This document shows, piece after piece, positions 7,261-62,626 of a stretch of DNA of 64,000 nucleotides (position 1 is the stretch's first letter; each line of letters opens with the position of its first letter). Under the pieces are notes generated by a model. That model made no database searches. It saw only the letters and a program-made list of their open reading frames with translations, and was not told the origin of the DNA. The stretch lies in IMG/VR virus record IMGVR_UViG_3300012344_000017, positions 32,001 to 96,000 of that record; one strand, given 5' to 3'. The position numbers and the translations under genes were made by a program. Origin of the DNA: a virus (lineage: Duplodnaviria > Caudoviricetes).

Positions 7261-10200
7261 ATGGCAAACTACAATTTACTTAAGTCCCCATCAGAGGACT
7301 ATTTTAGAGGATAGGCTAAAAGATTTGGTATAACACTACCAAATCAACGCCAATCCGTTCCTAATAAAAGGACTTAGGCTAATGTACCAAGTTATATATC
7401 AAGGCAATCTGGCTCTAGATTGGAGTCTGACATAATGCCTCATGGAGAATGGTATAAGCCTAGTCAAAAATCTATTCAGAGACAGAAAGATGCTATAGCT
7501 GAATATGATTGGAACAAACATATTGATGGCTTATACAAGAAACAATATCAGTCAAACAGACAAAAGATTGATGCTCAAGATGATTCAGAAGGCATGCTTT
7601 CTGACGCAGCTAAAGAGATGCAAACATAGCTTGAGGAAGATAAGCTGTTTGAGGACTTTAAAAAGACTGACATCTACAAAAATTCTGTTGGCTCTGATAT
7701 TGGCGGTATAAATGAACTTGGAAAAGATAGTTTTCAATTCACATTGTGGAAGATTGGCTAGAGAATTGGCTTGTTTTCAAATCAGTCTAGCGATCTTGGA
7801 ATTGAAAGCACAAAGGGTAAAATTGCTCTCGCACAAACAGACCAAGCAAAAGCAGATGCTTGGGCTAAACGTGAACGATTAAGAAGAGATTTAAAGTCAA
7901 AGAAGGACCAATGGAATTATCTTAAAGCTAACCCAAAAGCTCAAGTTAAAGGAGATGCATGGAAAGATACGTATCTTCTTGGACAGGATTTACTTAAGAC
8001 TTATGATTAGTTACAAGATAAAGACCTTAATGAGTTAGCTGATGCTTACAAAGCCGCATGGATGAAAGAGCATAATGGAGACGCTACTGAAAAAGCTTGG
8101 AAAGATGCATTTAAAAACGTTCTTGGTTTAGATAATGCAGTCACAAATGCAGCTTCTTCTATCGCTGGATGGGTATCTAGTTTTATTCAAAATAGAGCAA
8201 GAGAAGCTGGTATGGCGAGCTCTACTATTAATACATTTGATGGTACAGATAGATCTAAAGAACAGATGGCTAGAGATTGGATTGATAATTACAATAAATA
8301 GCTGTCTGATAGATTTGAAAAAGCGCACGCTGGAATGGATTTAGCGCAAAAAGAAACTGAAGCTAAACAATTTAAACAAAAAAGACAGCAAGATTTAAAT
8401 GATTACAAAGAAACCCTTGATGATCAAATGCGTAGAGCTTCAAAATGGAAGAAGTTCTGGAATGTTAGCAAGCATGCTGAGAACCTAGCTAATATACATG
8501 CCGACGATGATCTTTTAACACCAGATTACTGGTTATGGAATCTACCTTAGCAGATGGGTTCTTCTTGGTCTTCTGATACAGGAAATATTGGTAATCTTAT
8601 TACAACTGCTGGTACCGTTGGTTCTTTTGCTTTGGGTGCAGCTGGTCATCCAGAAGCAGGTTTTGCATTGTATAATGCTGCTAATGCGGCAGCTCTTCCA
8701 TTTAATCTATAGGGTGCAGAAGATGAGAACTACGCTGAAATTGCTCAACGTTGGACCTAGAACTATCAGTAGAATCTTAATAAGTATGAGGCACAGGAAG
8801 CATTTGGTAAAGCTAAAGGTATCTCTGCGTCATACAAAGATCTTCAAAAGCAATCTATAAAGTTTGCTATACAAAACGGCATGTCTAAGAAAGATGCTGA
8901 AGAAAGATATGATTTAAAGACGTAGCAAGGAAAGGAAAAAGTTCTTGGAGATTATTTGATGGGTATTACAAAGAGTAATGATCCTCGCTTGTCTAAAGCT
9001 AAGCTTGGCACCACTAAAGGTCTTGAGTAGCAGTTTATGATAGACAACGTTAGAACTATGGGTACAGAAGTTGTACAAAACGTTATATCGTATGTGCAAC
9101 CTTGTAACAGCCTTTCTAATCTATACCGGCAAGCTGTGTATAAGCTTCCAACAACTAAGCTTGGTGCAAAACTTGCTACAAGTAAAGCTGGTAGATTAGT
9201 TATAGGAACAGATTATGCTCTTGCTGGATTAAATGGTGCAGTTGAAAACAAATTTGCACAAGCCGGTCAGTATGTTAACTCTCTTACAAGCGCAGCTGGC
9301 AAAACAGGAGCTAAGATTGGTTCTATAACAATGGACGTACTTGGAGGTGGAGTATTAGGGCACTATGTTGGTGCTGGTATCGGCACTGCTGTAGGAGAGA
9401 CAGCTAGGGGCATTAAAGGACTTGCTAAAGAAGTAATGCCCCAAGCTCTTAAGGACGCCGGCATTATGGCTAGTGAGGCTATTGCAAAGAAAGCTGAAGC
9501 TTTAGCTACAATGGTTGGCGCTAAGACACTAAAGAGAAAGTTATTGAAAGCTGCAGTTAAGAATCCCAACACAATGGCAGTTTTGAAGATGCTTAATAAA
9601 TATGGAGTCAACACTGTTAGAGCTGGTATTATAGATAGGGCATCCGAAGGTAACGAAGAAATTGTGCAGTAGTTGAATGCTAATGCTGCTTAGGAATTCG
9701 CTAAAACGTACGGCTACGGATCAGCTGACTTACTTAGCCTTGCATTCTAGGATATGGCTCATAGCAAAGAGGTTGCAGACTTCTATAAAGGTATGTTTGG
9801 TCTTGGAGAATCTGAGCTTTATAACGACATGGAGATGCTATCAAACTGGCGAGGTGGTTTTGCTATGGGTGGTATGCATCCTATGGTGGTAATGAATATC
9901 TATCATGCTGTTAACGATATAAAGAATACAGTACAAGTAAAGGACGCTATAATGCACAGCGCTCTTCTCGACAGAGAACAAGGAAAGATGAACAGAGCTA
10001 GCAATGCCGTTATCTCAGACCAGATCTCTAGGGGAAGATATAATTAGCTGACTACTGAAATACAGCAGCTTAGAGAGGCTGATTTAAAGCGAGAAAGACC
10101 ACGTTTTGGTGAACAATATTGGAACGACTTGCAGTCTAATGTAGAGCGTATTGCAGCACTTGTAAATAATAAGCAGATTGAACAACAATATCGCCTTAAA

Positions 10201-49673: not shown

Positions 49674-50171
49674 TTATTTTTGGTTGAACGTTCTTTCGAT
49701 GTACTTTATAAAGCCATCCAAATATTCGTCAACGTCTACATGATTACGAATGTAATTCTTACAATTCTCATCAAAGACGCCAGAGACTTGATAAATACAT
49801 TCTATGTACTTATAGTGCTTCTGAAACCATTGCACCCAAGTTTGTACCCATTTCCAAAAAGATAGTTCTCCTTGTTCAAACTTAGGATTAATGCTTTCCA
49901 TATTTATAGAATAAGCAAAATTAAATTCTTGCTTACCTTTATGTATACCAAGAGCCTTCCTTACTGATGAATTTTTTTCATCTTTTGTAATATATATCGC
50001 CACATTCTCTTTGTATACTCTATCTATCCATCGTTCCTTAACTTTGTACGAAACACGATCTTTTGGATCGAGCTGGAGGTTTACTAATCTTCCAAATTCA
50101 GTACACCATTTAAGTGCGAGGTTGACGACATAAGGACATCTGTCCCGGATCATCGCTTTATAACCCTTCAT
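49674..50171 (-). CDS. Hypothetical protein
   Basis: 165 aa ORF. Confidence 0.7.
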   Translation of the reverse strand: MKGYKAMIRDRCPYVVNLALKWCTEFGRLVNLQLDPKDRVSYKVKERWIDRVYKENVAIYITKDEKNSSVRKALGIHKGKQEFNFAYSINMESINPKFEQGELSFWKWVQTWVQWFQKHYKYIECIYQVSGVFDENCKNYIRNHVDVDEYLDGFIKYIERTFNQK

Positions 50172-50178
50172 AACTAAT

Positions 50179-50241
50179 TGGAGAAGAGCAAGGAATCGAA
50201 CCTTGCGAATCTAGCAAAGCTAGTATATACCAGATCTTCTC
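50179..50241 (-). ncRNA. Mini tRNA-like element with encoded CCA, directly 3' of the tmRNA coding piece
   Basis: GAGAAGA TCTGG TATATA CTAGC-TTT-GCTAG ATTCG CAAGG-TTCGATT-CCTTG C TCTTCT CCA. Confidence 0.6.
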
Positions 50242-50249
50242 TCTCCACT

Positions 50250-50530
50250 TAGGTAGGAAACACCTAGACTATACTTACGCTACGCAAGTATAGTCTACAA
50301 TGTTGTTTACATTGTCGTTTGTATTTAGTATAGTGCTTAATGTATTTACTTCCTCTGTCTGTCAAAAGCCAAAACACGCCCGTATAGGTAGTTTTACAAC
50401 ATGCCCAGGTTGCCCAAACGGAGTCTAAACGTAGAAGAGATACCTCTAATAGACTTATCGTAGGGGGAAGAAGAACGTGGACGTGAGGGGAATCGAACCC
50501 CTGTCCAAACAGATTAACTCATACACACTT
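50250..50530 (-). ncRNA. ssrA: Circularly permuted (two-piece) tmRNA: acceptor piece ~50530-50478, coding piece 50381-~50250
   Basis: GGAC AGGGG-TTCGATT-CCCCT CACGTCC A lies upstream of GGGCGTG TTTTGG CTTTTGAC. The 7-bp acceptor stem has G3.U70 and A73. Tag ORF 50322-50275 (TNDNVNNIVDYTCVA*) has its stop in a long hairpin. Outer ends are approximate. Confidence 0.85.
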
Positions 50531-50697
50531 TACTTTCTTTGTAAATGTTCTAATGATCAGTTAGAACATTTGATTTAAGCCATATAGGAGTCGTTCTAAG
50601 ACACTTTTGACAGCATCATGGGTAATTACTCCACTTATCTCCTAGAATGTCTTAGAACGCATTTAAACATGACTAGAAATATATATAGTGACCCTCA

Positions 50698-50991
50698 TGA
50701 TACGAAGATACTTAGAGGACTATATTCAGCATTTTTGATATTCCATGCAGGGTTCGCTAGTTGATGTTATCTCAAGTAAGTGCTCCCCGATACAAAGATA
50801 CACACACGGTCTATTGTTTGATCTACTGGCTCCAATTATGCATGTGGAGTTCATGTCATTCTTTCCCTATCTTGATACGAAGATACTACGATAGGAATGT
50901 TAGCTCATTCTTTTACCCATTGAGTGTCCTGATCGCCCACTGGCATCTGCGCTGTAGTCTATTAGGGTTATGGGCGTGATACGAAGATACT
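50698..50991. repeat. Three exact 15-mers TGATACGAAGATACT (50698, 50873, 50977), each closed by a different stem; one-mismatch copy at 44148
   Basis: Closing stems are CCTC/GAGG, CCTATC/GATAGG and GGGC/GCCC; AAGCA/TGCTT for the 44148 copy. Confidence 0.8.
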
Positions 50992-51007
50992 TGCCCTGGA
51001 AAGAATA

Positions 51008-62535: not shown

Positions 62536-62607
62536 TGCCCTATCGTATATTGACTATTACCTCTGTCTCTAAAACAGAAGAAGTGGGTTTGATTCCTACT
62601 AGGGCGA
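62536..62607 (+). tRNA. Amber suppressor tRNA (anticodon CTA), presumably Gln
   Basis: Acceptor TGCCCTA/TAGGGCG, anticodon arm TCTGT-CTCTAAA-ACAGA (CTA at 62569-62571), T arm GTGGG-TTTGATT-CCTAC. Confidence 0.92.
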
Positions 62608-62626
62608 CTAATAAATAATAATAAAT

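Follow-up and report, generated by a model that had tools for sequence, protein, structure and literature searches.

A probable two-piece tmRNA (SsrA) gene in a TAG-recoding crAss-like phage: anatomy, tag family and maturation layout

The two-piece transfer-messenger RNA (tmRNA) of the Alphaproteobacteria (Caulobacter) was reportedly described by Keiler, Shapiro and Williams in 2000, and the beta and cyano two-piece lineages are said to have been treated by Sharkady and Williams in 2004. Among phages, Buchholz et al. (2022; PMC9004378) found 53 two-piece forms in 133 unique tmRNAs, and their Table S1 has 14 'CrAssphage' genomes, 13 of them 'Permuted', including cr7_1, cr124_1, cr130_1, cr131_1, cr272_1 and cr273_1. 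The 2025 tmRNA database (PMC11915505), for which RefSeq viruses were screened, holds 79 phage sequences. Here we describe a permuted tmRNA gene in a 64-kb window, that is, the whole stretch of DNA that was analysed, bases 32001-96000 of the IMG/VR virus record IMGVR_UViG_3300012344_000017. Coordinates are positions in this window and minus-strand features are marked (-). From its sequence and from covariation among its homologues we conclude, with a probability of about 0.88, that this locus of an Oafivirinae phage is a functional gene for a two-piece tmRNA (SsrA). The gene order (-) is the 3' tRNA-like half, a spacer, and the 5' tRNA-like half with the tag frame.

Two independent detectors, ARAGORN and Rfam, agree on this gene, which supports the above conclusion. 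ARAGORN calls a permuted tmRNA at c[50184..50567] (-) with the tag DNVNNIVDYTCVA*, and the Rfam model RF04321 (tmRNA_permuted) matches 50528-50275 with 56.2 bits, which passes its curated gathering score of 47, and an E-value of 2.9e-08 for the whole 64-kb window. A circularly permuted two-piece tmRNA had been proposed here by an earlier sequence-only reading, and both detectors bear this out together with its coordinates, namely A73 at 50478, G1 at 50381 and a spacer of 96 nt. By blastn against phage records the locus was found in four RefSeq crAss-like phages (cr7_1, cr124_1, cr130_1 and cr131_1), and with a more distant query in cr272_1 and cr273_1. In these relatives the same gene is annotated in RefSeq as 'transfer-messenger RNA, SsrA' and occupies the same position in the gene order, with a sigma-factor-like gene downstream of it. 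That this place is kept across four genera, with the SsrA annotation, also favours a working gene. These relatives are Oafivirinae (Crassvirales) of the genera Burzaovirus, Cacepaovirus, Chuhaivirus and Buhlduvirus, taxonomy and annotation being taken from five of the six RefSeq records (all but that of cr272_1). The family to which Oafivirinae is assigned is Suoliviridae in the RefSeq records and Darmviridae in the taxonomy dump of 2026-09-30.

The closest RefSeq records have 75-81% DNA identity and the same tag family (DNVNNIVDYTNVA, GNYNVVDYTHVA and GNINVVDYTGLQEAA); the window differs from them at the sequence level only, with Cys at position 11 of the tag in place of their Asn or His and with its 96-nt spacer. 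The tmRNA call itself is already on record, both in the RefSeq annotation and in Table S1 of PMC9004378. The novelty that the sequence-only reading had implied is therefore lost, its list of known permuted lineages had omitted phages, and the call alone confirms what annotated relatives have. The RefSeq and Table S1 records of the relatives contain no structure, tag analysis or discussion, and no discussion of the crAss-like tmRNA gene was found in the searchable literature on tmRNA and crAss-like phages, Oafivirinae or recoding. Nor was any account found there of how the gene is built, of the three lineage models (alpha, beta and cyano) failing on it, of a GGC resume codon like that of Bacteroidales, or of T-loops split by a group I intron in relatives. 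The anatomy of the gene and its tag family, its lineage status and the layout of its maturation thus appear to be undescribed.

Homologues were collected as 43 IMG/VR loci via a conserved 21-nt pattern and as 69 loci via the neighbouring sigma-like protein, down to 45% identity, and nearly all of the collected loci are permuted tmRNAs by ARAGORN or Rfam. A covariation alignment of 37 distinct homologues, with the structure written by hand, was compared with 500 shuffles and with slid controls. In this alignment 94.1% of the cells are paired and 26 of the 55 pairs are changed on both sides; none of the 500 shuffles matched the observed values, and the slid controls were only 30-52% paired. Changes on both sides occur in seven of the eight pairs of P2a, four of five in the T-arm, three of seven in the acceptor stem P1, and four of nine in an upstream hairpin, H0.

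The two halves pair through the acceptor stem and helix 2 (all positions -). The acceptor 5' strand GGGCGTG (50381-50375, with G1 at 50381) pairs with the 3' strand CACGTCC (50485-50479), and the discriminator A73 follows at 50478, where the 3' half GGAC AGGGG TTCGATT CCCCT CACGTCC A ends. The 7-bp acceptor stem with G3.U70 and A73 that had been read from the letters is thus upheld, and G3.U70 is present in 37/37 homologues and in 10/10 distant relatives inspected. The acceptors of distant relatives, such as GGGCCTG/CAGGTCC, GGGGATG/CATCTCC and GGGGTCG/CGGCTCC, have G3.U70 in each case, and the design is the same despite different acceptor, T-arm and P2 sequences. Helix 2, the other pairing of the two halves that had been claimed, is supported as well: its part P2a, CAGACAGA (50361-50354) with TCTGTTTG (P2a', 50513-50506), carries the double changes given above. 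It consists of three parts, P2a, P2b and P2c, of 8 + 5 + 4 bp. P2b is 98% paired in the 37 homologues, and P2c, read by eye, covaries among relatives as AGTG/CACT, AGCA/TGCT, ACGC/GCGT and AGCG/CGCT.

The core of the acceptor piece (50529-50478, -) is delimited by the ARAGORN 3' tRNA domain, the Rfam alignment and covariation. It begins with P2c' AGTG (50529-50526) and P2b' TGTAT (50525-50521), continues through an internal loop, GAGTTAA, into P2a', and then forms the T-arm AGGGG TTCGATT CCCCT (50502-50486), whose loop is of tRNA type, before the acceptor 3' strand and A73. Just 5' of this piece is hairpin H0 (50545-50569, -), in which ATGTTCTAA and TTAGAACAT form nine pairs around the loop CTGATCA, with 99% of the cells paired and four pairs double-changed. 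The loop is conserved, and a similar hairpin is found in some distant relatives. H0 may act as a cap-like stem at the 5' end, or as a signal for processing or transcription. The length of the acceptor piece is 52 nt or more, and about 92 nt if H0 is part of it. Between the upstream gene and the tmRNA there is a further stretch of about 440 nt without an open reading frame (ORF), which takes in 50693-50996 of the window.

The coding piece of 140 nt (50381-50242, -) is defined by the ARAGORN 5' tRNA domain and by covariation, its 3' end being inferred from the minihelix that follows it. After the acceptor 5' strand come the D-loop analogue (50374-50362), P2a and the loop GGAAGTAA, P2b ATACA (50345-50341) and the bulge TTAAG, P2c CACT (50335-50332), and then the tag frame and two hairpins, with about 15 nt between helix 2 and the resume codon. 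The first hairpin, which is P5-like, has 15 bp and a TAG loop (50297-50265, -); it was found as an inverted repeat, 87.6% of its cells are paired and four pairs are double-changed. It holds the last five tag codons and the stop. The tag stop at 50277-50275 therefore lies inside a hairpin, as had been claimed. The terminal hairpin H6 (50260-50242, -) consists of TTTCC, the loop TACCTAAGT and GGAGA, and 14 stem versions, among them TGCAGGC/GCCTGCA, GGACAGAC/GTCTGTTT and GACC/GGTC, surround the same 9-nt loop. This loop (50247-50255, -), TACC(T/A)AAGT, is conserved in both tmRNA clades while the stem varies freely, which suggests a protein-binding site or a tertiary contact. A mutual-information scan gave no partner for the H6 loop, only splits at the level of clades. 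An earlier pairing model, in which CACT (50335-50332) paired with an AGTG of the 3' tail and GGAAG with TTTCC in a pseudoknot, was dropped because the distant relatives showed TTTCC/GGAGA to be the covarying hairpin H6 and CACT to covary with the AGTG of the acceptor piece.

The tag frame GAC...GCG with its stop TAA (50316-50275, -), given by ARAGORN and by the conservation of the frame, encodes DNVNNIVDYTCVA. The open frame reads ...ACA AAC GAC AAT GTA AAC AAC ATT GTA GAC TAT ACT TGC GTA GCG TAA. An alignment across the relatives, which the sequence-only reading had suggested as a check, gave not only the covarying helices but also a frame that is kept in about 100 loci, where a 3-nt indel stays in frame. 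A D-Y-T core is invariant in the tag and its codons vary synonymously (GAC/GAT, TAT/TAC and ACT/ACC/ACG/ACA), and among the 24 distinct nucleotide versions with this core the stop is TAA in 13, TGA in 11 and TAG in none. Because the D-Y-T codons vary synonymously, the indel is in frame and the stops are only TAA or TGA, these patterns indicate that the frame is translated and that this short tag is under selection at the protein level. The tag class is [DG]-N-[VAY]-N-(N)-[IV]-[VI]-D-Y-T-[NCH]-[VI]-A in the clade of the window and G-[NKD]-[YMNI]-N-[IVL]-[AV]-D-Y-T-[GD]-L-[QK]-E-A-A in the distant clade. The atypical -VA end that had been pointed out is therefore real in the window but specific to its clade, in which it is once -IA, while -EAA closes the tag in the distant relatives.

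The resume codon is most likely GAC, as inferred from its context, and GGC in most relatives. ARAGORN picks GAC at 50316-50314 (-), and the codon at this position in relatives is mostly GGC, always begins with G, and is preceded by AAAC or AACT. The Thr codon ACA, which the sequence-only reading had taken as the resume codon, was rejected because relatives have ACA, TTA or ACT there and the next-but-one codon is invariantly G-initial; GAC/GGC is the better candidate.

The conservation of the tag also bears on another explanation, namely, that the RNA is a decoy which, once charged, goes into stalled ribosomes, or which sequesters host SmpB, mainly to block host trans-translation, tagging being unimportant. 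There is a precedent for this in a tmRNA-like RNA of mycobacteriophage DS6A without a coding sequence, which, according to a report cited in PMC11915505, inhibits the endogenous tmRNA. Moreover, the phage lacks a gene for SmpB and must compete for the SmpB of the host, and its tag is unlike the host tag GENNYALAA. A decoy, however, needs neither a tag conserved at the amino-acid level through synonymous codons nor the TAA or TGA stops present in all 24 versions, and we consider it improbable.

The spacer between A73 and G1 (96 nt; 50477-50382, -) varies from 14 to 180 nt among homologues and shows little conservation outside a leader hairpin; folded alone it is unremarkable (z -1.0). Because of its variable length and poor conservation we regard it as a discarded segment, presumably cut out during maturation. 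The leader hairpin of about 31 nt (50412-50382, -) stands directly before G1; its consensus, TAGGCA...TGCCTA, encloses the loop TGTTGTAAAAC. Compensatory changes are seen in it (C-G to A-T and G-C to A-T, among others). The hairpin is doubled in relatives with spacers of 135-180 nt, and is absent where the spacer is 14-16 nt.

On the other side, H6 is adjoined without a gap by an anticodon-less tRNA-like minihelix of 63 nt (50241-50179, -; -21.4 kcal/mol, z -3.3), and the ATG of the next gene is at 50171. The minihelix has a 7-bp acceptor, GAGAAGA/TCTTCTC, a T-arm, GCAAGG TTCGATT CCTTGC, then C-A, and no anticodon arm; its stems differ in relatives yet pair, and in two of them (L030 and L038) no more than an acceptor and T hairpin is left of it. 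A genuine tRNA-Met(CAT), 3-4 nt after H6, replaces the minihelix in four distant relatives, and in three other distant relatives the minihelix is followed by tRNA-Met. Since an RNase P-type substrate, minihelix or tRNA-Met, always stands 0-4 nt after the last hairpin, it marks the end of the coding piece. Probably RNase P cleaves at the minihelix, which would thereby define where the coding piece ends on its 3' side and divide it from the next gene; the replacement of the minihelix by tRNA-Met in relatives is new support for this punctuation role. A cut here would also release the message of the next gene. In cr7_1 the copy of the minihelix (L001:3311-3377) is annotated in RefSeq as a 67-nt 'tRNA-Cys', with the anticodon ACA by ARAGORN; in most relatives the minihelix lacks an anticodon arm, and the tRNA-Cys call looks like a misannotation.

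With such a tRNA mimic adjoining the locus, it could be argued that the tRNA-like halves, too, are mere RNA-processing punctuation of a long early transcript and that the short frame is incidental. This would not account for halves that pair across a variable spacer with G3.U70 always kept, for the conservation of helix 2, the resume context and the frame, or for a score above the threshold of the Rfam tmRNA model, and this explanation is very improbable.

The phage record is 105,850 bp long and is estimated to be 100% complete. The tmRNA is compact and belongs to a crAss-like phage that recodes a stop codon, as the sequence-only reading had held. Recoding of TAG is shown by the longest ORF, which extends from 663 to 5201 codons when TAG is read as sense, and by a suppressor tRNA with the anticodon CTA (62536-62608, +; ARAGORN, and Rfam tRNA with 46 bits) that reads TAG. 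This tRNA(CTA) is at the head of the TAG-recoded block of plus-strand genes; besides it the genome has only tRNA-Met(CAT). The late genes on the plus strand have up to 88 in-frame TAGs per gene. TAG recoding is confined to plus-strand genes (late, structural and virion RNA polymerase), and all 88 are in the one ORF of 5201 codons. The minus-strand block at about 29,300-60,000, which holds the tmRNA gene, is nearly free of in-frame TAG, and in this standard-code block the tmRNA gene is flanked by genes of 163 and 165 codons. That it lies among genes which need no TAG read-through is a further point in favour of a working tmRNA.

If the gene works as we propose, it would be transcribed together with the standard-code early and middle genes of the minus strand. 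Host RNase P would cut at G1 (50381) and at the 5' end of the minihelix (50241), and host 3' trimming and the CCA-adding enzyme would complete the acceptor piece at A73 (50478). The two pieces would remain paired and be charged by the host alanyl-tRNA synthetase (AlaRS), and host SmpB and EF-Tu would deliver them to ribosomes that have stalled because the mRNA is broken or lacks a stop codon. Translation would then resume at GAC, add (A)DNVNNIVDYTCVA, in which the Ala from the tmRNA precedes the tag, and end at UAA. The likely benefit to the phage is extra ribosome-rescue capacity in infection, with a phage-specific tag.

Several points weigh against a working gene. CCA is not encoded after A73, where the next bases are CGT; a few relatives (L019 and L102) do encode it. 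No SmpB gene was found in the 105,850-bp phage genome, and function hinges on the host SmpB accepting this RNA. The usual Ala-Ala end of the tag is absent from the window; tmRNA tags vary widely among bacteria, and an Ala-Ala end is typical rather than strictly defining. It is also unusual for a tmRNA to have no pseudoknot, and PK1 is important in E. coli tmRNA. Neither PK1 nor any of PK2-4 was seen here, the frame being followed just by the hairpins P5 and H6, although the H6 loop might engage in a tertiary contact. In several relatives an intron would first have to be spliced out. Finally, the T-loop of one relative (L032:7479-7895) is non-canonical (CGCGG GGCAGAG CCGCG). The tmRNA of this relative is otherwise intact, with helix 2 compensated, and is missed by ARAGORN; this may reflect decay of the copy or variation that is tolerated.

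The intron is a group I intron that splits the T-loop of the permuted tmRNA in seven relatives (L034, L047, L085, L103, L108, L113 and L118); in L034 the locus of the intron-bearing tmRNA is 7931-8203. With Rfam RF00028 (gathering score 50) the intron scores 81-87 bits; it follows the first U of the T-loop and has G as its last base. ARAGORN misses these seven tmRNAs because the intron interrupts the T-loop. Splicing would restore GGGGTTCGACTCCCC in the ligated exons. The longer introns have an antisense ORF of about 210 codons, the copies in L118 and L047 being 63% identical, which matches PHROG endonuclease families including EndoVII and HNH (phrog_3322); a Pfam search with this ORF gave nothing. 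In PMC11915505 'intron' and 'permuted' are treated as separate forms of tmRNA and the combined form is not listed. A tmRNA gene that is both permuted and intron-bearing may therefore be unreported.

The origin of the gene was considered with the lineage models and with tmRNAs of the candidate host order. On this genome the alpha model RF01849 gave no match at E<=10 (gathering score 50), the beta model RF01850 gave 40.6 bits against a gathering score of 84, and the cyano model RF01851 gave 33.9 bits against 70. Membership in the alpha, beta or cyano lineage was rejected with all three models below their gathering scores. That Bacteroidota normally have a one-piece tmRNA, as had been stated, holds for every tmRNA sampled from Bacteroidales (31) and from the genus Segatella (23), and GGC is the resume codon in 26 of the former and in all 23 of the latter. 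Bacteroidales tags begin with G-E/N-N, for example GNDYNYALAA and GNVDYALAA, and the phage tags with GGC begin with G-N-Y/V-N. The D-loop analogue ACTGGATTTGAC of one relative (L094) is identical to that of the tmRNA of a Segatella copri metagenome-assembled genome (MAG), and a count by eye shows the 3' half of another relative (L114) to match this MAG at 31 of 32 bases. Because of the GGC resume codon, the tag start and the near-identical tRNA-like domain, descent from a Bacteroidales-type tmRNA with a separate permutation event is plausible. The independent permutation that the sequence-only reading had proposed gains from these features and from the failure of the lineage models, but it stays a plausible reading because the tRNA-like domain is conserved in all bacteria.

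The closeness of the tRNA-like domain to that of Bacteroidales could also be cited for a relic, which might be a pseudogene in decay or an attP-type copy, a piece of host ssrA acquired by a phage with its integration site in that gene; 3' ssrA fragments in such phages are discussed in PMC9004378. Here both halves and the tag frame are present and the order is permuted, which is not a 3' fragment; compensatory changes extend over four genera; and the host-type gene is one-piece, 397 nt long and has a different tag. A relic is thus extremely improbable.

The phage tmRNA was also found in contigs of three bacterial MAGs (L122 = JAJXAL010000002.1, L120 and L121), which are labelled Segatella copri, Azospirillaceae and Succinatimonas. 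This occurrence is a weak hint of the host. In Table S2 of PMC11915505 permuted tmRNAs in Bacteroidota genomes are given as 18 'alpha', 23 'beta' and 7 'cyano', and mis-binned phage contigs may explain these hits.

A broader scenario would be that Oafivirinae are an independent permutation lineage, which arose in a phage from a Bacteroidales-type one-piece tmRNA, lost all pseudoknots and is matured by tRNA-style punctuation, and in which the D-Y-T tag and the TAA/TGA stops adapt rescue to a cell where TAG is sense, for example to read-through of TAG-terminated messages. We regard this scenario as doubtful. The tRNA(CTA) is present in six of the six tmRNA-bearing genomes checked; these belong to one clade and are therefore no evidence of a functional link. 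It was also considered that the phage suppressor would read past the end of any host tag with a TAG stop, so that the phage would need its own copy. The tag stop of the Segatella copri MAG tmRNA is indeed TAG, but TAG ends the tag in only 2 of 24 ARAGORN calls in Segatella (23 credible and one spurious) and in 7 of 31 Bacteroidales sampled, and the idea was rejected as a general reason. What remains is the hypothetical idea that more ribosomes stall because the suppressor drives read-through and the phage induces mRNA decay.

With about 190-235 nt in two pieces and no pseudoknot found, this is one of the smallest designs of a tag-encoding tmRNA. The tmRNA is fixed across a subfamily of abundant gut phages, all of which recode TAG, and its own tag is conserved, with dependence on host SmpB, AlaRS and tRNA-processing enzymes. 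It offers a natural minimal scaffold for asking what a tmRNA requires to work, and it prompts the question why an RNA for ribosome rescue is carried by a phage in which a stop codon is rewritten.

Compared with known systems, the phage gene shares with the alpha, beta and cyano two-piece tmRNAs (RF01849, RF01850, RF01851 and RF04321) the permuted order, a tRNA-like domain made of two RNAs, helix 2, G3.U70 and an internal frame, and in both helix 2 is formed by the 5' region of the acceptor piece with the coding piece. Unlike them, it passes the general model only, is much smaller and shows no pseudoknot; its resume codon is GAC/GGC and not GCN, its tag ends in -VA, and the 3' end of its coding piece abuts a tRNA or a mimic of one. 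Marine myophages, namely, the OM43 phage Melnitz and pelagimyophages (PMC9004378), resemble it in being lytic phages whose early region, which has no integrase, contains a permuted ssrA gene of their own. However, their tmRNA is reported to be alphaproteobacterial in type and Melnitz has a glutamine riboswitch, whereas the gene described here belongs to no known lineage and comes from a gut phage that recodes TAG and whose host is predicted to be among the Bacteroidales. With the one-piece tmRNA of Bacteroidales, as in the Segatella copri MAG (397 nt, GENNYALAA), it has in common the GGC resume codon and the G-N/E-N start of the tag, but the Bacteroidales gene has the standard order, is about twice the size, ends its tag in ALAA and contains a long pseudoknot region.

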